A DNA stretch of 64,000 nt, taken from positions 16,408 through 80,407 of the forward strand of contig CALXPB010000001.1 of NCBI GenBank assembly GCA_944390225.1. Direction: 5' to 3'. A program made the translations under genes and the position numbers. The notes under the pieces were generated by a model. The model saw nothing but the letters and a program-made list of their open reading frames with translations. It did no database searches and had not been told where the DNA came from. The first letter of the stretch is position 1. Every line of letters begins with the position of its first letter. The DNA comes from an uncultured Alphaproteobacteria bacterium. Lineage in GTDB: Bacteria > Pseudomonadota > Alphaproteobacteria > Rs-D84. Below, piece after piece: positions 3,564 through 63,257 of this stretch.

Positions 3564-3585
3564 AACTCCCAATCGGGAGTTTTTT
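3564..3585. terminator. Hairpin terminator at the 3' end of argS (bidirectional shape)
   Basis: AACTCCC-AATC-GGGAGTT flanked by an A-run and a T-run. Abuts the argS stop at 3584-3586. Confidence 0.7.
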
Positions 3586-5284
3586 ACATTTCTTCTGGAA
3601 TTTTTAAGCCCATTAAATCTAGTGCTTGGGACAAAACACGTAAAGATTGTTTTACTATCGCAAGCCTTTGCGATTTGACATCTTCTGGTATATCGTCGCG
3701 CATAATAGGGCAGGTGTGATAAAACGTGTTTATCAATTTGCACAAGTCATATGCATAGTTTGCTAAAATATACGGTGCACGACGTTCAAATGAAACTTCT
3801 ATAATTCTATTAAAGTCTAATAAGAACATTAATAAATCACGTTCTTCCGGTAATAATTTACAGTTCGTTATTTCTGCCGTTCCTTCTGCTTTTTTTATTA
3901 TGGAATTCAATCTTACCGCTGTATACAGAATATATGGACCTGTTCTGCCTTCAAAATTTGTTACTGCATCAACGTCAAATATATAGTCTGATTTTACGTC
4001 GTGCATCAAATCGTTAAACTTTAACGCGGCCAATGCTATCATTTCTATTGTTTCGTTAGGTAATTGTTTACCTGATTCTTTAACACGCGTGCGCACAGAA
4101 TCGGCAACTATGTTTAACATTTCGTCCAAACTTGGTACATTGCCGTCGCGAGTCTTAAAAGGTTTTCCATCAGCACCTGTTATAGTGCCAAAACCAATGT
4201 GTTGCAATTCTATTCCGTCTGCAAAACCTGCCAAACGTGCGGCACGAAAGATTTGCTTAAAGTGCAAAGTTTGACGATTGTCTGTAAAGTAAACAATTGC
4301 GTCTGGGTTATCGGTTCTTTCACGATAATAAATTGCTGTTAAATCTGCCGCCGCATATGTTTGTGCACCTGCACTTGATTTCCACATTACAGGTGGCATT
4401 GGTTCTGTATCTGTATCTTGCTTTACAGAAATTATTTCTGCACCGTCGCTATGTTCAATGATTCCTTTTTTGTCTAGAATTTCTTGTACTTCTGGTACGT
4501 ATTCTGCAATTAGTCTTTCGCCTTTGTTTTCATCAAAAGTTAAAATATTTAATCTTTTTAATAAACTGTTTACTTGGTTTAATGACATCGGAATAAAAGT
4601 GTCATAAATCTTTTTGTATTCTTCATTTCCGCTTTGCAATTCAACCGTTATTTTTTGCCCTTTCTCTAACCATCCTGGGTCTTCTTTTGCGCGTGTCGAC
4701 GAAGCAGGGTACATTCTGTTTACGTCATCTACATTTTGTGGCATACCGTTTTCCAGTATCCACGCAATTATTAAACCCATAGGACGTCCCCAGTCTCCCA
4801 TATGATTGTATGATTTCGTTTTGTGCCCCAAAAAACGTGCTATGCGATTAAATGTATCACCTACAACTGTCGTTCTAAGATGTCCTATATGTAATGTTTT
4901 CCCAACATTATAACCACCATAATCTAAATCTATCTTCTGTATTTTTTGAGTGTCTGGATTTAAATTATCCGTTAACGCCATTCTTTTTATATATTCGTCT
5001 TTTAGTTTTAAATTTATGAAACCCGGACCGGCAATAGAAACATTTGCAACGTTAGAGAGTTTTTCTAGATAAGGAACCATAATTTCCGCTATATCACGCG
5101 GTTTCTTACCAATAGATTTAGTTAAAAGCATTGCAATGTTAGTTGAAAAATCGCCAAAATCCCGTACTTTCGGTATTTCTATTGCTATGTTATTTAAAAT
5201 CTGTGGCGTTATGTAATCTTTTATTTCTGGTATTTCTTTTATCTTTGATAATACAGAATCTGAGATTTCTTTATAAATGTTCAT
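3584..5284 (-). CDS. argS: Arginine--tRNA ligase
   Basis: 566 aa. Class I HIGH variant (GKTLHIGHLR) and the typical ArgRS C-terminal anticodon-binding region ending ..GLKIPEEM. Confidence 0.9.
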   Translation of the reverse strand: MNIYKEISDSVLSKIKEIPEIKDYITPQILNNIAIEIPKVRDFGDFSTNIAMLLTKSIGKKPRDIAEIMVPYLEKLSNVANVSIAGPGFINLKLKDEYIKRMALTDNLNPDTQKIQKIDLDYGGYNVGKTLHIGHLRTTVVGDTFNRIARFLGHKTKSYNHMGDWGRPMGLIIAWILENGMPQNVDDVNRMYPASSTRAKEDPGWLEKGQKITVELQSGNEEYKKIYDTFIPMSLNQVNSLLKRLNILTFDENKGERLIAEYVPEVQEILDKKGIIEHSDGAEIISVKQDTDTEPMPPVMWKSSAGAQTYAAADLTAIYYRERTDNPDAIVYFTDNRQTLHFKQIFRAARLAGFADGIELQHIGFGTITGADGKPFKTRDGNVPSLDEMLNIVADSVRTRVKESGKQLPNETIEMIALAALKFNDLMHDVKSDYIFDVDAVTNFEGRTGPYILYTAVRLNSIIKKAEGTAEITNCKLLPEERDLLMFLLDFNRIIEVSFERRAPYILANYAYDLCKLINTFYHTCPIMRDDIPEDVKSQRLAIVKQSLRVLSQALDLMGLKIPEEM

Positions 5285-30293: not shown

Positions 30294-30314
30294 ACGGGGA
30301 ATTCCCCGTTTTTT
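30294..30314. terminator. Bidirectional terminator shared by the paralog array and serS
   Basis: ACGGGG-AATT-CCCCGT flanked by an A-run and T-run. Overlaps the serS stop. Confidence 0.8.
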
Positions 30315-31593
30315 AATGCTTGCCACCAATTTTTATTCTGCCGTCCATCAAAGATTGTAATTTTTTTGGTATATTTACGGATCCATCTGCATTTTGATGA
30401 TTTTCAATAATTGGCACCAGTGCACGTGGAACTGCAATACCTGTATTATTTAATGTCGCAACAAATTTTACGTCGCCAGTTGCGTTTTCACGATATCTGG
30501 TATTTGTTCTTCGTGCTTGAAACTCCCCAATAGATGAACAACTGCCAAGTTCTTTATAGCTATTTTCACTAGGAATCCATGCTTCTACATCATTCATTTT
30601 TATTTTATTAAATCCCATGTCCCCAGTTGAATTAGTTATTACGCGATAAGGTAATTCAAAATCTTCCATTATTTCGCATAAATTATTTAACAGATGTTCG
30701 TACATCTTGTCTGATTGTTCGGGTTTACAGAAAATGTATTGTTCAACCTTGTTAAACTGATGGAATCTTGCTAAACCTCTGGTATCACGACCTGCGGCAC
30801 CGGCTTCTTTTCTGAAGCATGGTGAAAAACCAACATATTTTATAGGTAATACATTTTCTGGTAAAATCTCGTCGCTGTGCATAGAGTTTAGTATTATTTC
30901 TGCCGTTCCTGCTAAACATCTGTCTGTATCTGTTAGCATGAATACATCATTGTTCATTACGGATAGGTCTGCACCCTTGAAATGTCCGGCATCAAATATT
31001 GTTTGCGGTTTAGTAATAGACGGGCATTCAATGTACGTAAAACCCTTGGAGATAAGTTTTTTTATTACGTACGTTTCTATGGCAAGTTGTAATTCTGCCG
31101 CTTCGCCTATTAAACAATAAGTGCGCGTTCCGCATATTTGTCCGATTTTTTCCGGCGCCCACCAATTATTCATGTCCAGTAAATCCCATTGCGCCCGTGG
31201 TGTGAAATTAAATTTAGGTGGTTCCCCGACTCTTTTTACTTCTATATTTGCGCTATCATCCGGACCAATTGGTGCTTCGGGGCTTGGAATCTGAGGAACG
31301 CAATGTAATAGATTATTAAGTTTTGCTTCTTTATCCGCCAATTCCGCCAATTCTGCCGCGATTTCATCGCTAATTTTTTTTGATTTTTCAATTAATGCTG
31401 CTTTATCGGATGCATTAGGTATTTCTCGCGTTATTTTGTTCTTTTCTGCGGTCTTGGTCTGGGTTATAGTCTTTAATTCACGAACTCTGATATCAAGTTC
31501 CAGTATTTCATCTACGTAATCTTCAAAACCCTTTACTTTACATGCGTTTTTTACTATCTCTGGGTTTTCTCGTATAAATCTGATGTCTAACAT
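30313..31593 (-). CDS. serS: Serine--tRNA ligase
   Basis: MLDIRFIRENPE.. coiled-coil N-arm. Class II motifs (FRKEAGAAGRDTRGLARFHQF, GTAVPRAL-like ..TGIAVPRALV). Confidence 0.95.
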   Translation of the reverse strand: MLDIRFIRENPEIVKNACKVKGFEDYVDEILELDIRVRELKTITQTKTAEKNKITREIPNASDKAALIEKSKKISDEIAAELAELADKEAKLNNLLHCVPQIPSPEAPIGPDDSANIEVKRVGEPPKFNFTPRAQWDLLDMNNWWAPEKIGQICGTRTYCLIGEAAELQLAIETYVIKKLISKGFTYIECPSITKPQTIFDAGHFKGADLSVMNNDVFMLTDTDRCLAGTAEIILNSMHSDEILPENVLPIKYVGFSPCFRKEAGAAGRDTRGLARFHQFNKVEQYIFCKPEQSDKMYEHLLNNLCEIMEDFELPYRVITNSTGDMGFNKIKMNDVEAWIPSENSYKELGSCSSIGEFQARRTNTRYRENATGDVKFVATLNNTGIAVPRALVPIIENHQNADGSVNIPKKLQSLMDGRIKIGGKH

Positions 31594-31655
31594 GATTTAT
31601 TCTCTTGGTTTAATTGTAAATTTTTTTACGATATATCGTAATTCATTATAAATAA

Positions 31656-31721
31656 TTAATAATTAAAGCGCACCCCAAAAGGGGATGAGCGAAAACTTAA
31701 AAAGTAATATTTCTTTTTCAT
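31656..31721 (-). promoter_or_regulatory. Candidate serS leader ORF (21 codons, MKKKYYFLSFRSSPFGVRFNY) containing Ser codons fused to a CCCC/GGGG hairpin
   Basis: The serS-strand block TCA TCC CCT TTT GGG GTG is in-frame homologous to ACA ACC CCT TTG GGG GTG upstream of thrS. TTGCTT (31759-31754), 17-nt spacer, TACTAT (31736-31731), ending 9 nt before the ATG. Confidence 0.4.
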
Positions 31722-31853
31722 GACAATAGAATAGTAAAATATTACCTTTAAAAAAGCAATCAAAAATAGGCTCTGGATAGCATGTAGAAAAAAATTGCGC
31801 CGTTTTTGTGATTGTGTTATGCTATGCCCCGAAAAGATAACGAGGAGTTTTTT

Positions 31854-32765
31854 ATGAATGATGTCATAATACATGATGTTATAATTCTTGGTTCTGGACC
31901 TGCTGGTCTGACTGCCGCATTATATTGTGCGCGGGCAGGTAAAAAGACTTTGGTACTTGGTGGTGATAGACTGGGGGGGCAAACCGCAGGAATTGCAGTT
32001 TTAGAAAATTATCCAGGATGGAAAGGTAGCGGAATAGAATTGGCAGAGTTTATGAAAACTCAGGCCGAAACCTTCGGGGCAGAAATTATTTTCGCTTCTG
32101 CAAAAAATATTTCTGGTGATGCGGAAAGCGCGTTTAATATTTTGGCAGATGACGGAAAAAGATATGTTGGAAAAGCAGTAATAATAGCAACAGGAGCTTC
32201 CCCACGTAAGTTGGAAATAGAGGGCGCAAAGGAACTTTTGGGTAAGGGCGTTTCTTATTGTGCAACTTGTGACGGTTTTTTCTATGCGTATAAAGATGTA
32301 ATCGTTATGGGTGGTGGTAATTCTGCTTTAAATGATGCCTTGTATTTAGCCGATATCGCAAAAAACGTAAAAATCGTTTATCGTAAAGGGGCTTTTACCA
32401 GAGCCGAGGCCGTCTTGCGTAATCGCGTAGCCGAACGCGAAAATATAGAATGCCTGTTTAATACTGATTTAAAGAAGATTGCTATGCTTCCGAATTCAGA
32501 TAAATTGGTTGTTACTACTACGGACGATAAGGAAATTATTTGTGACGGTCTATTTGTTGCAATCGGGCATGAGGCGAATACAGATTATTTAAGAGAAGAT
32601 ATAAAACGTGATAATATGGGACGCTTGATACCCGCTGAATTACCCGAAGGAATATTTGTTGCCGGTGATGTTCAGTCTGAAATAAAAATGCAGGTTGCAA
32701 CTGCCGTAGGAACAGGATGCAGTGCAGGTATGGATGCAATAGCATATTTGAATTCGCGCGGATAA
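31854..32765 (+). CDS. trxB: Thioredoxin-disulfide reductase
   Basis: AGGAG SD plus ATG at 31854. ILGSGPAGLTAALYCARAG, redox CATCDG, GGGNSA. Confidence 0.9.
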   Translation: MNDVIIHDVIILGSGPAGLTAALYCARAGKKTLVLGGDRLGGQTAGIAVLENYPGWKGSGIELAEFMKTQAETFGAEIIFASAKNISGDAESAFNILADDGKRYVGKAVIIATGASPRKLEIEGAKELLGKGVSYCATCDGFFYAYKDVIVMGGGNSALNDALYLADIAKNVKIVYRKGAFTRAEAVLRNRVAERENIECLFNTDLKKIAMLPNSDKLVVTTTDDKEIICDGLFVAIGHEANTDYLREDIKRDNMGRLIPAELPEGIFVAGDVQSEIKMQVATAVGTGCSAGMDAIAYLNSRG

Positions 32766-45060: not shown

Positions 45061-45132
45061 TAAAATTTGGGATAACAGTGATTGGTTTTACCGATTTTTT
45101 ATTTTTAAATGCTTTTTTGTTTCATATTTTTA

Positions 45133-45141
45133 TGGTATAAT
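45133..45141 (+). promoter_or_regulatory. Extended -10 promoter element upstream of outer-membrane protein gene
   Basis: TGGTATAAT about 22 nt upstream of the ATG at 45163. No good -35. Confidence 0.35.
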
Positions 45142-45162
45142 TTTTCTAAAAGGAGTTTTGTA

Positions 45163-46371
45163 ATGAAAAAACAAATATCTTTATTTATGATAGGTTTTAC
45201 TTTGTTCGCAATAACGCCGGTTTTGGCGGCAACAAATTTGGGAACGCGTGCAGGTTCCAGTGTCGATTTAACCGGACAGCCGGCCGTACGTGAACGTACT
45301 CAGGTTAACTACGAGAAATATGAAACTCGTACTTCTTCTAAAACTTACGATCAGAAAGACGGTAAAAATTTATATTATACTCAACCCGCCGATCGTAGCG
45401 AGGTTTATAAACAATATGCAAGCGGTACAGATTCTTCCGCAACAGTACGTACAACTCGGGCGGAAACATATACCAGTGAATTGAAGAGAAAATATTATTT
45501 GGCTCATCCTTTCTTTCAGCCACTAGAAGGTAAATTCGGTTCTGTTACAGATTTGTCTTATTCTATGAGTTCTTATGATGTTTTATTGAAACCAATCGGT
45601 GACGGTTCTGTTTCTGATGCAAACGGCAAATGGGATATGAGTCAGTTTTCAATCAAAGAGGATTTTAGTTACGGAATCACAGATCGTATAGCATTAATCG
45701 CAATGTTAAAATATGATATTTCTAAATATAAATTTGATTGGGAAACTGCTCCGGATGACGAAATGGACGATAACGATTTAAGCGTTTTAGGTTTAGGAGC
45801 ACAGTGGCGTTTTGTCGATAATGACGACTGGATTGCTACGTTGTCCGGATATTATCAGTACCAGAAAGATATTTCTAATAACTTTATTTTGGACTTAAAG
45901 GCCGGATATAAGGTTGGGTCTTCAACGATTTATGGCTTGGCCCGTACATGGTTCGTAGACTTTGACGGTAATTCATACGGTAATGGTATAGAAGGTGAAA
46001 CAGCAGAAGGGACAAAGGCTTCTTTATTCTTAGCATATGATACAGACGTAAATACTGTCTTTTATTTTGAAGGCGGTTTAGGTATTTTCAGTGTGTTGGA
46101 TGAAGACTGGACTCTGAACTTCGAGGCGATTTTAGGAAACTATGATTGGCATAACCAAGCAAGTTTGAAGGCGGCAATCGGTTGGCAACCAAACGATTGG
46201 ATGGCTTTGAACTTGTATGCCAAGACTTCTGTATACGATTCAGCAAATGGTAAAGACCTGACTTTCTGGGGAACAGATTTTGATACAGGTGTATTTACTC
46301 ATATGGGAAATGCAAGTATTGATAATATTTCTGAAACGTCAGTAGGTTTGCAAGCAATATTTTTATTCTAG
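45163..46371 (+). CDS. Hypothetical outer-membrane beta-barrel protein
   Basis: AGGAG SD. Signal peptide ..ITPVLA/AT. Alternating-hydrophobicity strands. C-terminal ..GLQAIFLF (terminal Phe). Confidence 0.6.
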   Translation: MKKQISLFMIGFTLFAITPVLAATNLGTRAGSSVDLTGQPAVRERTQVNYEKYETRTSSKTYDQKDGKNLYYTQPADRSEVYKQYASGTDSSATVRTTRAETYTSELKRKYYLAHPFFQPLEGKFGSVTDLSYSMSSYDVLLKPIGDGSVSDANGKWDMSQFSIKEDFSYGITDRIALIAMLKYDISKYKFDWETAPDDEMDDNDLSVLGLGAQWRFVDNDDWIATLSGYYQYQKDISNNFILDLKAGYKVGSSTIYGLARTWFVDFDGNSYGNGIEGETAEGTKASLFLAYDTDVNTVFYFEGGLGIFSVLDEDWTLNFEAILGNYDWHNQASLKAAIGWQPNDWMALNLYAKTSVYDSANGKDLTFWGTDFDTGVFTHMGNASIDNISETSVGLQAIFLF

Positions 46372-49589: not shown

Positions 49590-49955
49590 TTGTTAAATAA
49601 TAATAAAAACTCAGATTTTACTTTGGCTGTGGCTAATCTAGCAGCAGCGGCTATGTCGGCGAACCCATCTCTTACAATAGAGGCCGCAGTAAAGGCGGCA
49701 CGTGAATCTTTGCGCGGAACTTCTGTAACTCCGCAGCAGATTGCCGATTCTGTTCAATCAGATAAAATTCAATGCCTTGAAGACGGAACATGGCACGTTA
49801 TGCTGAGACGTTATATAAAACGAAAATTTAATTTAACTCCCCAACAGTATCGTGAAAAATGGGGATTGCCAGACGATTATCCATTCGTTGCCTCTAAGTA
49901 TTCTGTAAAACGTTCTAAAATAGCCAAAAAAACTGGACTTGGGAAAAATAAATAA
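49590..49955 (+). CDS. MucR/Ros family transcriptional regulator
   Basis: C-terminal IQCLEDGTWHVMLRRYIKRKFNLTPQQYREKWGLPDDYPFVASKYS. TTG start inferred. Confidence 0.8.
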   Translation: MLNNNKNSDFTLAVANLAAAAMSANPSLTIEAAVKAARESLRGTSVTPQQIADSVQSDKIQCLEDGTWHVMLRRYIKRKFNLTPQQYREKWGLPDDYPFVASKYSVKRSKIAKKTGLGKNK

Positions 49956-49968
49956 AAAGGCTCAGATA

Positions 49969-51891
49969 ATGACAGATAAATTTAGAAATATTGTTGCACA
50001 ACCAGAAGAGCTAGCAAAAAAATTACGTAAAGCAATAGAAAAAACTAAACCCATAAAATTTATTGATGAACAGAGTAAAAATAAATCTGGTGAACCAAAC
50101 AGTCGTGAAAAAGTAATTGATACTGCAAAAAAAACTGCTTTGGTGACTGCCAAAGGAGTAGGGTGGCTTGCAGCAGGTGGGGCGCAATTTTTACTAACTC
50201 TGTCCAGATGGATCGCACTAGATAATTCCTTGTTGCGAAAAATGGAAGATATGTACAGAAATAGAAAAGTTCAAAAAAATAAGAAAGGGAAAAATAAAAA
50301 TTTACAATCTTTTACTAAAAAGTATCCGAATTTATCGGCTCATATACTTTGGTATTTTTTGCTGGCAGCAGTAATAGGTGGTGTAAAAGTATCTGTAGAT
50401 AATGGAAAGAAAATCGTTTCTACATATAAAGAAATGAAAACAGATAAAGAAATAGCAGAAAGCACAAAAGGAACTTACGCGGCATTTTTAAATAAAATGA
50501 AGCCAATAACCCCATTTTTAATAGCAGATTTAATAGCGAAAGAAGGTGTTCATATTGATAAAAAAACAGGTTTACATACACCTTATAGGGACTCAAAAGG
50601 GATACCGACAATCGGATTTGGATCTACAATTTTGAAAGATGGCACCAGTGTTACTATGAACACAAAACCAATAACAACTGAAGAGGCTTATGAATTAGCG
50701 CGTTGGCATTTGGAAGATGGTGAAACTTATTTTGTATTGTATTGTTATGATGTTGCAATTGATGGTATAAACGTTAACACGACAAACGAGGCTTTGGGTA
50801 TGAGTTCTATAATTTATAACTCTTATTCAAAATTGATAGAAAATAAAAACGACAGAAACCATAGGGAAAGATTTAGCGAATTAAGACTTTTATATGATAA
50901 GTATGGTTATGCTTTACCAGATTCTTTGGTGAAAGAAATATTTGATAAGTACCCAATAAATTCTCCAACAAGTTTTGGTAAGTCTTGGTTGGAAAACGAT
51001 AATAAAGAGATTACTGCTAATAAACTTGGCGGATTTCTTGTCGGGGGAAGAGGACTTTTTTGGAGACGTTGGTTAGAGGCAGGGCTTTTTACAGGTTATA
51101 TTACGCCACAAATGTTATTGGAATGCCCGTCTAATGGGATGTACGAATTTTTTAAAGTAATGGGAAAAAAGAAAAACGCTTTTTTTACGGGTGATATAGA
51201 AAACAGGCGTGTTAATAAACAAACATTCGAGATTTTTAAAGAATGGCTGAAAGATCCTGTTGATGAGAAAGGTAATTCTCTAGAAAACTGGCCAAAGGTA
51301 AAAGAACATTTACCAAAAGAAGTTTTAGTTTTTTGTGAACAAGGTAAATGTGAATTTGGTAACGAATATTTTGAAGAAATAATTAAAAAACGAGAACCAG
51401 AAGAAATAAAAACTTATGTTCTGGGTTATGATGATATGTATAATCAAGCTTTAAATGCTTTTAATAATGAAGATTTTAAATTGGCCGCAATCGAGTTTGA
51501 AAAGATGATTCGCAAATATCCTAATAATGCTTTATTGCATAATGATTTGGCTGCAACTTATAACAAACTTGGAAAATACGATGATGCAATAAAACAGGCT
51601 CGTATAGTTTTGTTTGAGATTGGTGATAAAAGTCAATATGGAGCAGCCCAATATAATGCCGGTATTGCATATGAAAAAAAGAACGATTTAAAAAATGCTT
51701 TAAAAAATTATAAATTAGCCGTTAAAAATGGTAATAAAAAAGTCAAATATAATCTAAACAGAGTGCAGAAAAAACTGCAAAAAAATAAAACCATTGAGTT
51801 TTTTCAGGCGGAAAATAATATAAAGAAAGATAATGTTATAGATAATAAAGACACAATATTTTCTATTTCAGATAAAACAAATTTATTATAA
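49969..51891 (+). CDS. Membrane-anchored GH24 (T4-type) lysozyme-like protein with C-terminal TPR repeats
   Basis: Two TM segments. Motif EGVHIDKKTGLHTPYRDSKGIPTIGFGS (E..D..T of T4 lysozyme). TPR-like ..YNQALNAFNNEDFKLAAIEFEKMIRKYPNNALLHNDLAATYNKLGKYDDAI. Confidence 0.65.
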   Translation: MTDKFRNIVAQPEELAKKLRKAIEKTKPIKFIDEQSKNKSGEPNSREKVIDTAKKTALVTAKGVGWLAAGGAQFLLTLSRWIALDNSLLRKMEDMYRNRKVQKNKKGKNKNLQSFTKKYPNLSAHILWYFLLAAVIGGVKVSVDNGKKIVSTYKEMKTDKEIAESTKGTYAAFLNKMKPITPFLIADLIAKEGVHIDKKTGLHTPYRDSKGIPTIGFGSTILKDGTSVTMNTKPITTEEAYELARWHLEDGETYFVLYCYDVAIDGINVNTTNEALGMSSIIYNSYSKLIENKNDRNHRERFSELRLLYDKYGYALPDSLVKEIFDKYPINSPTSFGKSWLENDNKEITANKLGGFLVGGRGLFWRRWLEAGLFTGYITPQMLLECPSNGMYEFFKVMGKKKNAFFTGDIENRRVNKQTFEIFKEWLKDPVDEKGNSLENWPKVKEHLPKEVLVFCEQGKCEFGNEYFEEIIKKREPEEIKTYVLGYDDMYNQALNAFNNEDFKLAAIEFEKMIRKYPNNALLHNDLAATYNKLGKYDDAIKQARIVLFEIGDKSQYGAAQYNAGIAYEKKNDLKNALKNYKLAVKNGNKKVKYNLNRVQKKLQKNKTIEFFQAENNIKKDNVIDNKDTIFSISDKTNLL

Positions 51892-51901
51892 GGATAGTCT
51901 T

Positions 51902-53914
51902 ATGAAAGTTTTTATCAGTTATAATGATAATAGATGGAAAAAATACCATATAGATTTTGCAGAAATTGCAAACGCCGTTGTTGAACATACTAATAAAAAC
52001 GCCGAGGTTTCAATTGTTTTAACAAACGATACAGAAATTCACGAATTAAATAAAAAATATAGAAATATTGACAAGCCCACTAACGTTTTATCTTTTGAAT
52101 TAGATGATGATATTTTATTGGGAGATATTTATATATCTTTGGATACCGTTTTTCGTGAAGCAGATGAACTAGGTATATCTGTTGAAGACCATACCGCTCA
52201 TATGGTTGTACACGGGGTTTTACATTTATTGGGCTATGATCATATTAAAGATGAAGACGCAATTGTTATGGAATCAAAGGAAATAAAAGTGCTTAAAAAA
52301 CTAGGTATAAAAAATCCCTATGAATCAGAGTTAAACATTTGTTGTGATTCTTCTTGTTGTCCTGGTGGTCGTTTGCTTTCTTGGTTAAAAAAACTTAAAA
52401 TTCGTAAAAATAGTTTAGAGCAATATATTTTATTGTTTCTATTAGGTGGTATCGCTTCGCTTGGCTTTGCACCGTTTTATATGTGGTGGGCTACTGTTAT
52501 TGCCATTGCGTGTGCGTATAAATTAATTGTGCGCTCTGCAAATAAGAGTGACGGTTTATTTAAATGCTTTTTACGGGTCTTGCCGTTTAGTGCAACTTAT
52601 GCAGTTTCTATGTTTTGGTGGGTTTTACATTCTATATACGTTGTACCAGAATTAGCAACTCAGTTTGCAATATGGACTGCACCTGGAATATTGAGTATCG
52701 CGCTTGTCGGAGGTTTTGTTTTTTCTATTCCTTTTGTTGTAATATCTCGTATGTGCACGGTTCCTGCATATAGACCGATTTTTTTCGCTGCAACTTGGAC
52801 TTTTGTTTTATGGCTGCGAGAATGGTTGTTTACAGGTTTCCCTTGGAATCCAATTGCAAATATAACAATGACTTTACCTGTTTTGGCAAACTCTATGTCT
52901 GTGTTTGGGGCCTTGGGATTATCTTTCATTATAATAGGTTTAACCGCAACGATAGTAGAGTTGTTATCAGATAAAAAATCAAAAATAAATTGGTTAAATT
53001 TTTTAATTTTTATAATGCTTGGTGTTATAGGATCTATGCTCGGATATCGTAATATCCAAATTGCGCAAAAAGAAGAAAATATTTCTCCTGTTATTCGTGT
53101 CGTGCAACCCGCACAAAGTGCTGTTCAAAAGGCGTCTCATTCCAGAGCTGAAGCACTGAAAAACGCAGAAGAAAATATTAAAAATTTAATATTACTAGCA
53201 GTTGCTCCATATAAACCTGATTTAATAATTTTCCCCGAGACCTCTTACCCTTTTGTCGTAGTCAGAGATGATGTTTTGCCTATTGCTGATGCTATACAGG
53301 CTAAGGTTTTAATAGGCGCCACATCTTATGATGAAAAAGGTTTACATAATTCTATGCTAATTCTTTCGCCAGACGGTGTAATTCAAAATATTTATAGTAA
53401 ATCTCATCTTGTGCCGTTCGGAGAATACAGACCTTTCGGAGATCTTATACCTACTCCGGGGCAATTGGTTGCAGGTAACGGACCAGAAATTTTTACTTTA
53501 AAAATTAATGAAAAAGATTTTTCATTTATCCCGGCAATATGCTATGAGATAATTTTTTCTGATTCTTTGCAACCCCAAGAAAATATGCATATAGACGCGA
53601 TAGTTAATATCACAAATGATACCTGGTTCGGGAAAACACCAGGAACATATCAACATCTTGATATGGTGCGGAGATATGCGATTGAATCTGGATTACCTAT
53701 TATAAGAGCAAATTATTCTGGAATTAGTGCCTTTATATCTTCTGATGGTGAAATAATTTCTTATTTACCAATAGGTCAAGTTGGTCATCTGGACGGATTT
53801 GTGTGGGGAGCGCATAAAACTCTATATCGTACTGTCGGACGTGACGGCTGGATGATAATTATATTGGCGTTTTCGATTATATATGTTGCTATATTGGATA
53901 AAAGAAGAAAATAA
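51902..53914 (+). CDS. Fusion protein: YbeY endoribonuclease domain plus apolipoprotein N-acyltransferase (Lnt)
   Basis: One uninterrupted 670-codon ORF. N-terminus HGVLHLLGYDH (YbeY Zn site). A Cys-rich linker ICCDSSCCPGG, then Lnt TMs and nitrilase domain (FPE.., K in YSKSHLVPFGEY, C in PAICYEIIF, NITNDTWFG). Confidence 0.8.
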   Translation: MKVFISYNDNRWKKYHIDFAEIANAVVEHTNKNAEVSIVLTNDTEIHELNKKYRNIDKPTNVLSFELDDDILLGDIYISLDTVFREADELGISVEDHTAHMVVHGVLHLLGYDHIKDEDAIVMESKEIKVLKKLGIKNPYESELNICCDSSCCPGGRLLSWLKKLKIRKNSLEQYILLFLLGGIASLGFAPFYMWWATVIAIACAYKLIVRSANKSDGLFKCFLRVLPFSATYAVSMFWWVLHSIYVVPELATQFAIWTAPGILSIALVGGFVFSIPFVVISRMCTVPAYRPIFFAATWTFVLWLREWLFTGFPWNPIANITMTLPVLANSMSVFGALGLSFIIIGLTATIVELLSDKKSKINWLNFLIFIMLGVIGSMLGYRNIQIAQKEENISPVIRVVQPAQSAVQKASHSRAEALKNAEENIKNLILLAVAPYKPDLIIFPETSYPFVVVRDDVLPIADAIQAKVLIGATSYDEKGLHNSMLILSPDGVIQNIYSKSHLVPFGEYRPFGDLIPTPGQLVAGNGPEIFTLKINEKDFSFIPAICYEIIFSDSLQPQENMHIDAIVNITNDTWFGKTPGTYQHLDMVRRYAIESGLPIIRANYSGISAFISSDGEIISYLPIGQVGHLDGFVWGAHKTLYRTVGRDGWMIIILAFSIIYVAILDKRRK

Positions 53915-57957: not shown

Positions 57958-59532
57958 ATGCGTAATGGGTTAAGTAAAGATTTAATTACTCGTGTTTTGG
58001 GCGCGGAGCCTAAATACACGTTGGTAGAACTGGAAGAAAAATATCCGTTGCGCGATTTGCCAGATGGGGCTTTTGTAACGCGATTCGCACCAAGCCCAAC
58101 CGGATATATGCATATAGGTGGTTTATATCAGGCGTTGATAGATTGTAAATTGGCTCTACAATCTGGTGGAGTTTTTATGCTTCGTATAGAAGATACCGAT
58201 ACAAAACGAGAAGTTGAAGACGCAGTTAAGATAATAGAGGACTCTATCCATCGGTTCGGTCTGAAATATAATAATGATGAAAAGTATGGACCATATTACC
58301 AATCGAAACGTAAAGATATTTATCATAGCGTTGCTGCAGATTTATTGGCACGTGGCTTGGCATATCCTTGCTTTTTGACGGCAGAAGATATGGATAAAAT
58401 TCGTGAAAAACAAAAGGCTGCTGGCTTTGCAACAGGTATTTATGGCGAGTTTGCACGTGACCGTGATTTAACAGAAGAAGAAATAATTGCGCATTTGGAT
58501 AATGGTGAAATACCAACGATTCGTTTATATTCAATGGGTAACCCAGAGAATAGAATTTTTTGCAAAGACGCCGTGCGCGGCTCTATCGGATTTCCTGAAA
58601 ATAACGAAGATATCGTTTTGATAAAATCTAATGATGGGTTACCAACTTATCACTTTGCGCATTTATGCGATGACCATTTTATGCGTACTACGCACGTGGT
58701 GCGTGGAGAAGAATGGTTGCCTTCGTTCCCGCTACATATACAGTTGTTTCGTATGATGGGGTGGACACCGCCTATGTATATTCATACATCTACTATTGAT
58801 AAAATTGATTCGGAAACAGGTAAACAAAGAAAATTATCAAAACGTCATGATCCAGAGGCAAATGTTGCATTCTTCTTAGCAGACGGTTGGCCGACCGAGG
58901 CTGTGTTGGAGTATCTCGGTAATATTGCCGCATCTGGTTATGAAGAAGCAAAAGCAAAAGGGCAGGTTAAATCAATTTGGGACTATGAAATGAAACCAAA
59001 GAAAATACCAATGTCTGGTGCGTTGTTTGATATGAAAAAATTAGAATGGTGGTCAAAAGAATTTATCGCGTCGTTGCCCGTTGAAGAACTTGTTAAGCGC
59101 GTCGTTACTTGGGCGGATGAATATGATGCACAGTGGGCGGCACGAATCGCAGTCAATCCAGAATACTTAAAAAGTATTTTGGCAATTGAACGAGATAATC
59201 CAAAACGTATTCGTAAAGATTTTATTACTTGGAAGCAAACTTTACAGGAAATATCTTACTTCTGGGACGATTTGTTTGCTCCAAATAAAGAGTATAATTT
59301 TAATTCTGATTTATTATCTGCATTTTTAGAAAACTTTGATATAGCAGACGATAAAGACGTTTGGTGGGGAAAGATAGTTTCAATTGCGACAGAAAAAGGT
59401 GTAAGTAATGGAGAGGTTGCAATGAACCTGCGCGTTGCGCTGACAGGTCGCACGAATACACCAGACTTGTATTCTATTATGCAGGTTATGGGGCAAGAAC
59501 GTGTTGTGCAAGGAGTAAAAAATGCAATTTAA
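57958..59532 (+). CDS. gltX: Glutamate--tRNA ligase
   Basis: RFAPSPTGYMHIGG (HIGH), KLSKRHD (KMSKS). 524 aa. Starts 1 nt after the GNAT stop. Confidence 0.85.
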   Translation: MRNGLSKDLITRVLGAEPKYTLVELEEKYPLRDLPDGAFVTRFAPSPTGYMHIGGLYQALIDCKLALQSGGVFMLRIEDTDTKREVEDAVKIIEDSIHRFGLKYNNDEKYGPYYQSKRKDIYHSVAADLLARGLAYPCFLTAEDMDKIREKQKAAGFATGIYGEFARDRDLTEEEIIAHLDNGEIPTIRLYSMGNPENRIFCKDAVRGSIGFPENNEDIVLIKSNDGLPTYHFAHLCDDHFMRTTHVVRGEEWLPSFPLHIQLFRMMGWTPPMYIHTSTIDKIDSETGKQRKLSKRHDPEANVAFFLADGWPTEAVLEYLGNIAASGYEEAKAKGQVKSIWDYEMKPKKIPMSGALFDMKKLEWWSKEFIASLPVEELVKRVVTWADEYDAQWAARIAVNPEYLKSILAIERDNPKRIRKDFITWKQTLQEISYFWDDLFAPNKEYNFNSDLLSAFLENFDIADDKDVWWGKIVSIATEKGVSNGEVAMNLRVALTGRTNTPDLYSIMQVMGQERVVQGVKNAI

Positions 59533-61290: not shown

Positions 61291-61332
61291 AAGTTGACTT
61301 ATTTTAATAACAGTATTAATATATTTATTGAT

Positions 61333-61386
61333 ATGATAAAAAATATATTGTTCTTTATCACAGCAACAACCCCTTTGGGGGTGTAG
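61333..61386 (+). promoter_or_regulatory. Candidate thrS leader ORF (17 codons, MIKNILFFITATTPLGV) with Thr codons forming the 5' arm of a terminator-like hairpin
   Basis: ACA GCA ACA ACC CCT TTG GGG GTG TAG. Inner CCCC/GGGG hairpin. Outer stem ACAGCAA (61360-61366) / TTGCTGT (61394-61400) plus TTTTCTT. TTGACT (61294-61299), 17-nt spacer, TAATAT (61317-61322), ending 10 nt before the ATG. Confidence 0.4.
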
Positions 61387-61407
61387 TTTCTATTTGCTGT
61401 TTTTCTT
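61360..61407 (+). terminator. Compound hairpin plus U-tract between hlyIII and thrS (terminator or attenuator)
   Basis: 7-bp outer stem enclosing a CCCC-TTTG-GGGG hairpin, followed by TTTTCTT. Confidence 0.55.
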
Positions 61408-61456
61408 ATGTAATGTATAATTAAAATACTATAATTATAAAAATAAGGGTTTTATT

Positions 61457-63190
61457 ATGTCTTATCCAATCGAAACGGTACGTCATTCTCTGGCGCATGT
61501 TATGGCGGCTGCGGTACAGAAACTTTATCCGGATGTAAAATTTGCCGGTGGACCAGCAATTGAAAACGGTTTTTATTATGACTTTGATACAGAACATCGT
61601 TTTTCAGAAGAAGATTTTGCAAAAATAGAAAAAGAAATGCGCGACTTGATAAAGTCAAACGGCAAATTTGAACAACGTAATGTAAGTCTGAACGAAGCCA
61701 AAGAAATTTTTGCAAATCAACCTTATAAAATGGAATGGTTAAATGAATATGATGCAGCAGGCGAGGATTTGTCTATTTATAAATTCCGAGACTTTACGGA
61801 TTTATGTCGCGGGCCGCACGTTGAAACTTCCAAAGATTTACCACGTGACAGTTTCAAAATTCGTAATGTCGCAGGGGCATACTGGAAAGGCGATTCGAAA
61901 AATAAGATGTTACAACGAATTTATGTAGATGCTTTTGCAAGTAAAGAAGAACTTGATCAACATCTGAAAAATATGGAAGCAGCCGCCGCTCGTGATAATC
62001 GTAAACTTGGTAAAGATATGGACTTGTTCCATTTTGAACCAGATTATGCACCGGGGGCTGTTTTTTGGCATGACAAGGGCTATAAAATATATCGTAAACT
62101 TATAGAATACGTTCGTCATCGTCAAGAGCTGGCAGGTTATCAAGAAATTTCTACTCCATCCGTTATGGATAGGTCTTTGTGGGAACGCAGCGGTCACTGG
62201 GCTAAATATGGGGAACATAATTATTCTGGAAAAACTCAAGATGGTAAAACATTCTGTGTTAAGCCAATGTCTTGCCCAGGGGGTATGTTGGTATTCGGGC
62301 AGGGCATTAAATCTTATAAAGATTTGCCGTTGTATTTGGCAGAATTCGGAAAAGTTAATCGTTACGAAGCGGCTGGCGGATTGTCCGGACTGATGCGCGT
62401 TCGTGAATTTACGCAAGACGATGCACATATTTTCTGCACGGAAGAACAATTAGAAGAAGAAGTTGTTAAAATATTGCGCTTTATTAAAGATATTTATTCC
62501 AAATTCGGCTTTGAAAAAATTTCTACTAAATTAGCAACGCGTAAAGAATCTGAATTCCGTATCGGTTCAGATGAAATTTGGGATAAGGCCGAAGGGGCTT
62601 TAAAGCATGCTTTGGATGCAAATGGTATCGAATATGAAATTGCAAAAGGTGACGCCGCTTTTTATGGTCCTAAAATAGACATTTATTTAAAAGATTCTAT
62701 CGGACGTACTTGGCAATGCGGTACTGTGCAGTTGGATATGAATTTGCCTGAACGCTTTGATTTGTCCTATATAGGCGAAGATGGCGAAAAGCATCGCCCA
62801 ATTATGTTACACCGTGCAATGCTGGGTTCAATTGAACGTTTTATGGGCGTTTTGTTAGAATCAACAGGTGGTAATTTACCGTTATGGTTATCGCCAGAGC
62901 CCGTCGTTGTGACCCCTATTTCCGAGAAGTTCAAAGATTATGCAATAGAGATAGTTGATGAATTGCGTAAGAACGGTGTTTATTGTCGTGCAGATTTGCG
63001 TGATGAAAAAGTTAATTATAAAATTCGTGAATTATCTTTGGCTAAAACTCCTATCATCGCAATCGTCGGTGAAAAGGAGGCAGCAGATAAAATGGTAACT
63101 TTACGTTATCTTGGAATAGAAAAACAGGAAACGAAACCGTTGGCAGAATTTGTAGAACAAATGAAACGCGATACAAAAATGCCTTTGTGA
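61457..63190 (+). CDS. thrS: Threonine--tRNA ligase lacking the N-terminal TGS domain
   Basis: Starts at the editing-domain HxxxH region (VRHSLAHVMAAAV). Class II core (FRDFTDLCRGPH, RVREFTQDDAHIF, GSIERF). 577 aa. SD AAGGG. Confidence 0.9.
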   Translation: MSYPIETVRHSLAHVMAAAVQKLYPDVKFAGGPAIENGFYYDFDTEHRFSEEDFAKIEKEMRDLIKSNGKFEQRNVSLNEAKEIFANQPYKMEWLNEYDAAGEDLSIYKFRDFTDLCRGPHVETSKDLPRDSFKIRNVAGAYWKGDSKNKMLQRIYVDAFASKEELDQHLKNMEAAAARDNRKLGKDMDLFHFEPDYAPGAVFWHDKGYKIYRKLIEYVRHRQELAGYQEISTPSVMDRSLWERSGHWAKYGEHNYSGKTQDGKTFCVKPMSCPGGMLVFGQGIKSYKDLPLYLAEFGKVNRYEAAGGLSGLMRVREFTQDDAHIFCTEEQLEEEVVKILRFIKDIYSKFGFEKISTKLATRKESEFRIGSDEIWDKAEGALKHALDANGIEYEIAKGDAAFYGPKIDIYLKDSIGRTWQCGTVQLDMNLPERFDLSYIGEDGEKHRPIMLHRAMLGSIERFMGVLLESTGGNLPLWLSPEPVVVTPISEKFKDYAIEIVDELRKNGVYCRADLRDEKVNYKIRELSLAKTPIIAIVGEKEAADKMVTLRYLGIEKQETKPLAEFVEQMKRDTKMPL

Positions 63191-63203: not shown

Positions 63204-63227
63204 GGCGCGTTTCTTTACGCGCCTTTA
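63204..63227 (+). terminator. Hairpin after thrS
   Basis: GGCGCG-TTTCTTTA-CGCGCC followed by a short T tract. Confidence 0.5.
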
Positions 63228-63257
63228 TAATTACTATGTAAAAGAAAGGGAATATAT

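Follow-up and report, generated by a model that had tools for sequence, protein, structure and literature searches.

The stretch analysed here (the window) comprises 64,000 nucleotides (nt) of contig CALXPB010000001.1 from an uncultured alphaproteobacterium. Upstream of serS and of thrS, the genes for seryl- and threonyl-transfer RNA (tRNA) synthetase, it carries a short open reading frame (ORF) in which codons for the amino acid of the downstream enzyme run into a hairpin, and these two leaders are our subject. The identities of serS, thrS and trxB, the neighbour of serS, are backed by NCBIfam. All of the closest relatives of the two synthetases (78–90% protein identity) belong to uncultured Alphaproteobacteria of gut and rumen, many of which bear the name Candidatus Enterousia; the window lineage is Candidatus Enterousia (GTDB order Rs-D84), a gut alphaproteobacterium. 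Enterousia/Rs-D84 genomes are smaller than 1 Mb and amino-acid biosynthesis is absent from them (PMC12306168); the G+C content of the window is 36%. Sequence fetched from relatives was pooled and gave 154 distinct leader ORFs, 115 of the Thr type and 39 of the Ser type (L001–L080 denote the serS loci of relatives, and the thrS loci of close relatives are numbered from L081 on). Column conservation was read from alignments of 50 thrS leaders and 36 serS leaders. The features at the two loci, with P1 and P2 standing for the upstream and downstream promoter-like pairs and A and B for the two hairpins, are as follows.

30313..31593, reverse strand: serS (TIGR00414, E = 1.9e-122), proposed regulated gene.
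31731..31759, reverse strand: serS P1, promoter-like pair TTGCTT (31759-31754), 17-nt spacer, TACTAT (31736-31731), recognized by sequence and conservation.
31656..31721, reverse strand: serS leader ORF of 21 codons, MKKKYYFLSFRSSPFGVRFNY followed by a stop; ATG at 31721, 9 nt after the -10.
31683..31688, reverse strand: putative serS sensing codons TCA TCC (Ser-Ser), with an extra Ser codon, AGT, at 31695-31697.
31668..31690, reverse strand: serS hairpin A, GC-U-CA-U-CCCC [UUUU] GGGG-UG-C-GC, -11.7 kcal/mol, its 5' arm made of the Ser and Pro codons.
31650..31667, reverse strand: serS U/A-rich tract UUUAAUUAUUAAUUAUUU, which contains the leader stop codon; its TTTAAT columns are kept in serS leaders.
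31613..31641, reverse strand: serS P2, promoter-like pair TTACGA, 17 nt, TACAAT, with hairpin B in the spacer.
31627-31640, reverse strand: serS hairpin B, UACGAUAUAUCGUA, within the P2 spacer.
61457..63190, forward strand: thrS (TIGR00418, E = 1.8e-204), proposed regulated gene.
61294..61322, forward strand: thrS P1, promoter-like pair TTGACT, 17-nt spacer, TAATAT, 10 nt before the ATG; invariant columns in the 50 thrS leaders.
61333..61386, forward strand: thrS leader ORF of 17 codons, MIKNILFFITATTPLGV followed by a stop; orthologous ORFs in 115 distinct sequences.
61366..61371, forward strand: putative thrS sensing codons ACA ACC (Thr-Thr), with an extra ACA at 61360-61362.
61367..61383, forward strand: thrS hairpin A, CA-A-CCCC [UUUG] GGGG-UG, the sole RNAalifold consensus helix (50 sequences).
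61387..61397, forward strand: thrS U-rich tract UUUCUAUUUGC, adjoining the stop codon; TTTCT invariant or nearly so.
61394..61421, forward strand: thrS P2, promoter-like pair TTGCTG, 16 nt, TATAAT; TTGC and TATAAT are invariant or nearly so, at constant spacing, in the 50 thrS leaders.

The codons of the serS leader are ATG AAA AAG AAA TAT TAC TTT TTA AGT TTT CGC TCA TCC CCT TTT GGG GTG CGC TTT AAT TAT TAA. With only 9 nt between the -10 and the ATG there is no space for a Shine–Dalgarno sequence, and in P1 the TTG of the -35 and the TA..AT of the -10 are invariant or nearly so. A mechanical ORF list had extended this frame to an ATG at 31874 (72 amino acids), across the promoter; in most relatives the frame is not open that far upstream. 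The U/A-rich tail resembles the tail of the thrS gene-end terminator (63204-63233), and its TTTAAT columns are also kept in those serS leaders that lack P2. Everything that a preliminary description of this DNA had stated about the sequence (both leader ORFs, their positions and frames, the promoter-like pairs, and the divergence of serS from trxB) was borne out on reading. A simple terminator scan flags both hairpins.

In the thrS leader of the window the Thr run is broken by GCA (Ala), and hairpin B is missing. Here ACAGCAA (61360-61366), which contains that Ala codon, can pair with TTGCTGT (61394-61400), the -35 of P2, enclosing hairpin A and the U tract; this pairing appears to be lineage-specific.

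The two leaders had been described as sharing an 18-nt block in one reading frame. TCA TCC CCT TTT GGG GTG (serS) and ACA ACC CCT TTG GGG GTG (thrS) do share a frame, with exactly three differences between them (T/A, T/A and T/G), and the homology of the blocks, their common frame and the leaderless geometry hold in relatives as well. With up to two mismatches allowed, CANCCCCTTTNGGGGTG is found in the 64 kb only at the two leader sites; shuffled sequences give an expectation of 0.04, and two matches were seen in 0 of 100 shuffles. At two loci (L077 and L079) the serS leader aligns with thrS leaders over ~60 nt, as C-A-[U/A]-CCCC-UU(U/G)-GGGG-(A/G)UGUAAUUUCUAUUGCG...UCUAUAAUC. This alignment indicates that serS and thrS leaders are copies of one module, differing chiefly in the first bases of the cognate codons. 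In these two serS leaders the stem is a perfect CAUCCCC/GGGGAUG, the U pairing with an A; in thrS leaders the A of ACC pairs with the U after the G run, which is another register. These stems hint at compensation for a change in the base that opens the last cognate codon, but this was not counted as covariation.

The association of the module with synthetase genes was examined in one genome per species from 185,579 species, using the pattern CCCC-N3-4-GGGG-N-TGTAATTTCT, which specifies the hairpin and the thrS-type tail and leaves the codons free. There were 119 matching stretches: ~100 directly before thrS, carrying Thr runs (including that of a bin with a ThrRS only 48% identical), 3 upstream of serS, encoding Ser-Ser-Pro, 1 truncated where its contig ends, and 14 chance matches from unrelated phyla with no leader ORF. 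The expectation that the motif is tied to synthetase genes, and not common elsewhere, held. With a looser, serS-type pattern, the matches listed were mostly ordinary terminators of other phyla, and all 11 clade matches with TCATCCCC among them were before serS. The element is found upstream of thrS in every close relative, with peptides ending in a Thr run followed by Pro-x-Gly-Val-stop (for example MKIYFIGFFTTTTTTPAGV and MKQIWFIFTTTTTTTTPAGVR), and serS leaders encoding ...Ser-Ser(-Ser)-Pro-Phe/Leu-Gly... are present in 41 of 80 relatives. As had been predicted for the variable codons, they track the downstream gene: the 115 Thr leaders (3–8 Thr each) are all before thrS and the 39 Ser leaders (2–6 Ser each) are all before serS. 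Neither in the species scan nor in a screen of the clade did the leader ORF occur away from these two genes. That screen looked through 1.26 Mb from the clade for short ORFs that lie close to a promoter and contain residue runs; apart from noise it returned just the Thr and Ser leaders, and its coverage of other synthetase genes, alaS and proS above all, was poor.

Presence of the leader at serS follows gene order. In 31 loci serS lies behind a co-directional trxB (gap of 8–36 nt in 30 of them and of 207 nt in the remaining one) and none has a leader, whereas 38 of the 46 loci in which serS diverges from trxB have one, the other 8 having a short divergent spacer. The leader therefore goes with a serS that heads its own transcription unit; gene order and regulation at serS changed together.

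Several observations bear on whether the leader ORF is decoded. Its ATG is an invariant column situated 6–13 nt after the conserved -10, which implies a 5' untranslated region of ~0–6 nt and thus a leaderless ORF. In all 154 distinct leaders the frame is open and the promoter-proximal ATG is in frame, the encoded peptides having 14–25 amino acids, mostly 17–21. Of the 115 thrS leaders, 109 have their stop codon 4 codons behind Pro; in all 39 serS leaders this distance is 4–8 codons. Numbering codons back from Pro, codon -1 of the thrS leaders is ACC in 115/115, codon -2 is ACA or ACG in 115/115, and codons -3 to -6 are mostly ACN; over codons -6 to -2 all four third bases are used (ACA, ACT, ACC, ACG) with bases 1 and 2 fixed as AC. 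The serS leaders have TCC at codon -1 (39/39) and TCA (33) or TCG (6) at codon -2. Outside the cognate run the peptide is unconserved, and the residue encoded by the hairpin loop may be F, L, A, T, V or W; a loop residue so free in an otherwise unconserved peptide points to selection on the codons and the RNA hairpin, not on the peptide product. This variation is consistent with that of a decoded ORF, from which we infer that the leader is translated.

An untranslated RNA element would be another way to couple such a sequence to synthetase genes: the hairpin might bind uncharged tRNA, in the manner of a T-box whose specifier would be UCC or ACC, or it might be bound by the synthetase, like the E. 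coli thrS operator. T-boxes for Ser and Thr do usually have these two codons as their specifiers. However, SerRS does not read the anticodon of its tRNA, the element is only ~70 nt long, its candidate specifier is base-paired and not in a loop, and the loop sequence varies freely. Moreover, 5–8 ACN triplets with synonymous variation between a fixed in-frame ATG and a stop make sense only if translated. Autoregulation of thrS through its own mRNA is known in E. coli (mentioned in PMC2965389). Searches of Rfam argue against an element of either kind: there was no match at the gathering score in the window, and at E values up to 10 the two leaders gave only chance-level RsaE, miRNA and lncRNA models, with no match on either leader to T-box (RF00230) or to the Thr, His, Leu, Trp and Phe leader families at E = 10. 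We regard an untranslated element as extremely improbable.

Hairpin A consists of CCCC(C), a loop of 3–5 nt and GGGG(G), usually extended by 2–4 pairs (CA/UG, UACA/UGUA), with folding energies of -7 to -13 kcal/mol and a variable loop (UUUG, GCG, ACG, GUUG and others). The last cognate codon (ACC or TCC) and the Pro codon together supply its 5' arm; thrS leaders show no variation in the CCCC and GGGG columns, and serS leaders almost none. The leader stop codon sits at the 3' foot, 1–5 codons past the G run, and is accompanied by a conserved U-rich tract (UUUCUAUUU in thrS, UUUAAUU in serS); the thrS gene-end terminator of the window has a similar tail, UUUAUAAUUA. Being much weaker than the clade's gene-end hairpins, hairpin A would be a leaky terminator, as expected before an essential gene. 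Gene-end hairpins of the clade (L081–L128, 0–90 nt after the thrS stop; 63204-63233 in the window) have strong GC stems that are often followed by TATAAT instead of a U run, a layout that suggests very compact terminator-promoter junctions or factor-dependent termination.

Three other roles for the leader RNA were considered and rejected. Masking of the synthetase start by the 5' end of the leader was seen in minimum free energy folds of both window leaders, but such pairing occurred in about half of the relatives' folds, no oftener than when the first 30 nt were shuffled or swapped, and is a composition artefact. The CCCC arm as an anti-Shine–Dalgarno sequence is ruled out, since the Shine–Dalgarno sequences vary (AAGGGG, AAAGG, AAGAG) and the local hairpin would always win. 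A hidden Shine–Dalgarno sequence in the G-rich 3' arm, serving a second upstream ORF at the UUG of TTGCGG, is unconserved: the frame is open in L088 and stops at once in L096 (TTG CGA TAA).

Downstream of hairpin A all 50 thrS leaders have P2 (TTGCnn, 17 nt, TATAAT) at constant spacing, and many but not all serS leaders have an equivalent, TTGCGN-17-TAnnAT, with a hairpin. Among loci L081–L134 the P2 pair lies ~10–45 nt after the leader stop. Hairpin B (4–6 bp) starts at the G of TTGC and fills the P2 spacer; its pairing is kept by compensatory changes in 48 of 50 thrS leaders (GCGG/CCGC, GCGC/GCGC, GCAC/GUGC, GCGA/UCGC, GCGU/ACGC), and as RNA it would exist only in transcripts that read through from P1. 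At three loci (L004, L017 and L040) there is no promoter-like pair between hairpin A and serS; because serS is essential, it must there be read through hairpin A.

The invariance of P2 in the 50 thrS leaders allows a view in which the leader ORF constitutes a separate micro-gene, promoted from P1 and terminated at hairpin A, while expression of the synthetase comes only from P2, with no regulation in cis; a hairpin followed by TATAAT is moreover the usual layout between a gene end and the next promoter in this clade. Several facts speak against this view, namely that (i) the peptide is unconserved except for the cognate run and those residues that the hairpin dictates, (ii) in each of the two paralogous contexts the run agrees with the adjacent synthetase, (iii) several serS leaders have no P2 and (iv) the ORF never occurs away from serS or thrS. 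We consider it very unlikely.

The reading that we prefer is that each locus is a cis-acting leader-peptide attenuator reporting the supply of charged tRNA-Ser or tRNA-Thr to the matching synthetase gene, which the comparative sequence evidence makes probable, if by no means certain. It is supported by a codon identity that matches the gene in all 154 leaders, together with the variation typical of a decoded ORF and the conservation of hairpin A and the U tract. Further support comes from the three serS loci that lack a promoter-like pair behind hairpin A, from the absence of the leader where serS follows trxB in an operon, from its restriction to two of the window's four synthetase genes, and from precedents before other synthetase genes. 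The transcript from P1 would start at the AUG of a leaderless ORF of 17–21 codons, or a few bases upstream of it, and a Shine–Dalgarno sequence would be unneeded. The last 2–8 sense codons before Pro would all be Ser codons (serS) or all Thr codons (thrS), the final one (UCC or ACC) forming with the Pro codon the 5' arm of hairpin A (3–5-nt loop, 2–4 flanking pairs), and hairpin A, followed by the stop codon and the U-rich tract, would bring about weak intrinsic termination or a pause. A shortage of the cognate charged tRNA would make the ribosome dwell on the cognate codons. The front edge of a ribosome lies ~12 nt past the first base of the A-site codon; with the A site at any of codons -4 to -1 it would cover CCCC and block hairpin A, and RNA polymerase would continue into serS or thrS. 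When charged tRNA is plentiful, hairpin A would form on more of the transcripts, which would end before the synthetase gene. In most loci P2 would supply a basal level of synthetase. That the cognate codons -1 and -2 are invariant in both families, and that serS leaders often have only these and -3, fits a stall that blocks the hairpin. Termination at hairpin A, its relief by stalling and the direction of control are what we infer from this arrangement.

A number of points weigh against this attenuator. The leader ends at the hairpin foot, its stop codon lying in or beside the U tract, so that a ribosome cannot finish the leader before the polymerase leaves the terminator; by our own reasoning, the sequence does not explain how termination occurs when tRNA is plentiful. 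Where a leader has 6–8 Thr codons, a ribosome stalled on the first of them does not reach the CCCC/GGGG core, which stays free. With -7 to -13 kcal/mol, hairpin A is far less stable than the clade's gene-end hairpins (-13 to -23 kcal/mol), and in many leaders the G run and the U run are 4–6 nt apart. Neither an antiterminator (2:3) nor a pause (1:2) helix was found, RNAalifold on the 50 thrS leaders giving hairpin A only; by eye there is no other C-rich stretch that could serve as an alternative partner of the G-rich 3' arm, and hairpin B is not complementary to either arm of hairpin A. Lastly, expression from P2 could mean that most loci do not need the leader.

The first of these difficulties would disappear if termination were Rho-dependent, as in the tna operon, with the sensor and its logic otherwise the same. 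Rho would load on the naked leader once the ribosome has left, at the C-rich, G-free ACN/UCN run with CCCC and the A/C-rich untranslated region, and would stop the polymerase before or within the synthetase gene; a stalled ribosome would mask the loading site, and hairpin A and the U tract would be mainly a pause. This would solve the kinetic problem of a single hairpin with a stop codon at its foot. The codon run and the 5' arm are indeed G-free and C-rich, hairpin A is weak as a terminator, and the clade's gene-end hairpins, often without U runs, hint at factor-dependent termination. A proposal of the same type was put forward by Seliverstov et al. for actinobacterial leader peptides without terminators (PMC1262725). 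However, the loading stretch is short, P2 transcripts share the untranslated region and would also be exposed to Rho, and a conserved U tract right after a hairpin is what an intrinsic terminator needs. On balance we think this version unlikely.

The position of the stop codon also recalls coupling of the opposite sign, as in pyrBI, where the leader ORF likewise runs through the hairpin: a ribosome following closely would unwind hairpin A, and slow decoding would cause lag, formation of the hairpin and less synthetase. By our own geometry, a ribosome touching the polymerase on the U tract decodes exactly the last cognate codons, and in long Thr runs the first hungry codon is too far upstream for a stall there to cover CCCC. 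Yet a stall at the invariant codons -1 and -2 (in serS often with -3 only) always covers the 5' arm, and less charging would lead to less enzyme, a positive feedback on an essential synthetase that is opposite to every studied case, T-box and pheST included. Such reversed control seems quite improbable to us. For the well-fed state of the stall-relieved attenuator, three ways out remain, in order of decreasing plausibility: a lagging pioneer ribosome, Rho loading after ribosome release (tna-like), and the reverse coupling logic (pyrBI-like).

Taken further, the stall-relieved attenuator may be minimal, modular and retargetable. A single hairpin would do the regulating, with the sensing codons themselves as its 5' arm and no antiterminator, and the unit (promoter, leaderless ORF, hairpin, U tract and embedded second promoter) would have been duplicated from thrS to serS and retargeted by an A to U change at the first bases of the cognate codons. 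As the last cognate codon must give two C to the stem, the design would be limited to Ser, Thr, Ala or Pro, and it may be the main amino-acid-specific control in a bacterium of <1 Mb that makes no amino acids. We put this wider scenario forward tentatively, as a possibility that falls somewhat short of even chances.

The window holds two further synthetase genes, argS (3584-5284, reverse strand) and gltX (57958-59532, forward strand); gltX begins 1 nt and argS 67 nt behind its upstream gene, and neither has a leader. None of the window's intergenic regions is leader-like besides those of serS and thrS. Among more distant alphaproteobacterial ThrRS genes (L136–L160, ~60% identity) there is coding sequence upstream of the aligned start and no leader; the extra sequence presumably encodes an N-terminal domain missing from the 577-amino-acid Enterousia ThrRS. 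Elsewhere in the window, a 670-amino-acid ORF (51902-53914, forward strand) matches YbeY (rRNA maturation RNase, residues 11-137) and apolipoprotein N-acyltransferase Lnt (residues 229-618), an apparent gene fusion; ybeY and lnt are normally separate, neighbouring genes. Two other forward-strand ORFs, 49939-51891 (650 amino acids) and 45109-46371 (420 amino acids), have no Pfam match at E <= 1e-8, and the former has no NCBIfam match at E <= 1e-10 either.

Leaders that work as we propose would extend leader-peptide attenuation to seryl-tRNA synthetase and to the uncultured, genome-reduced gut lineage Rs-D84, in which, with amino-acid biosynthesis absent (PMC12306168), the level of a synthetase would be one of the few responses left to amino-acid supply. 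The paralogous pair would be a natural experiment in changing the specificity of a sensor, with the codons swapped and the rest kept. The layout raises the question of how little RNA suffices for amino-acid-specific attenuation and how termination works in the well-fed state; being only ~70 nt long, it would also lend itself to synthetic amino-acid sensors as a very small component. A label can now be given to more than 150 intergenic regions of public metagenome-assembled genomes.

As to known systems, the E. coli attenuators trpL, thrL, hisL and pheM-pheST have, like the leaders described here, a short upstream ORF with a run of codons for the amino acid of the downstream gene. Classical attenuators share with them a GC hairpin and U tract between leader and gene and the expected logic (scarce charged tRNA, stall, read-through), and pheM, a leader peptide before a synthetase gene, has the same kind of target. 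Unlike in classical attenuators, the sensing codons here are the 5' arm of the only hairpin, the stop is at the hairpin foot, the ORF is leaderless and a second promoter is embedded downstream; moreover, there is no sequence or Rfam match between them and no conserved 2:3 or 1:2 helix. The pyrBI leader of E. coli resembles ours in having a single hairpin, here a putative terminator, inside a leader ORF that would be translated through it, so that a ribosome on the 5' arm would prevent termination; it differs in sensing uridine triphosphate through polymerase pausing and in having no cognate codon run. T-boxes of Firmicutes serS and thrS act on the same genes, respond to the same signal (uncharged tRNA) and use the same specifier codons. 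The leaders here have no T-box sequence or structure, show only one conserved helix, reach about a quarter of a T-box's length, and would have the codon read by a ribosome and not by free tRNA. The thrS operator of E. coli, a mimic of the tRNA-Thr anticodon arm bound by ThrRS at the ribosome-binding site, is a hairpin with an anticodon-like loop that overlaps the thrS Shine–Dalgarno sequence; in the leaders here the loop varies, hairpin A is 70–110 nt upstream of the Shine–Dalgarno sequence and the same hairpin serves serS.

The preliminary description knew of no described Ser/Thr leader family with a swappable codon cassette for serS and thrS; as a claim of novelty this is too strong, leader peptides of synthetase genes being known. 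In Streptomyces lividans, leaderless leader peptides mapped by RNA sequencing (RNA-seq) precede thrS (thrL), alaS (alaL), leuS (leuL2) and trpS (trpL2) (PMC8079986); leuS and trpS attenuators in Streptomyces had been reported, and actinobacterial leaders lacking attenuator components noted (PMC1262725). A His leader precedes hisS paralogues in bacilli (PMC2965389), and Caulobacter crescentus has a translated small ORF before trpS (PMC4117421), which is alphaproteobacterial and linked to a synthetase gene, as here, but concerns a different amino acid and gene and has no known relation to the module. Neither a described serS leader nor a description of this leader family or of gene regulation in Enterousia was found in our literature search.

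The closest parallel is S. lividans thrL (MKRVRPFLETTPGFVPAR, ...Glu-Thr-Thr-Pro-Gly-Phe...), with two Thr codons, one hairpin and no U tract (PMC8079986). As described, the S. lividans leaders match those studied here in architecture: they are leaderless short ORFs with cognate codons, each immediately upstream of a synthetase gene and with a hairpin after it. Several of them have no U tract or antiterminator. The Thr-Thr-Pro-Gly of thrL is strikingly similar to the Thr-Thr-Pro-x-Gly found here and fits the same embedding of Thr codons in a C/G hairpin (ACC-CCN-GGN). The two groups differ in phylum and very much in GC content, no paralogous Ser version has been described in S. lividans, and the evidence there consists of RNA-seq transcription start sites and here of comparative sequence. 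Leader peptides before synthetase genes are thus known; what is probably new is the sequence family, the serS target, the compact leaderless layout with one hairpin, and retargeting by codon replacement.

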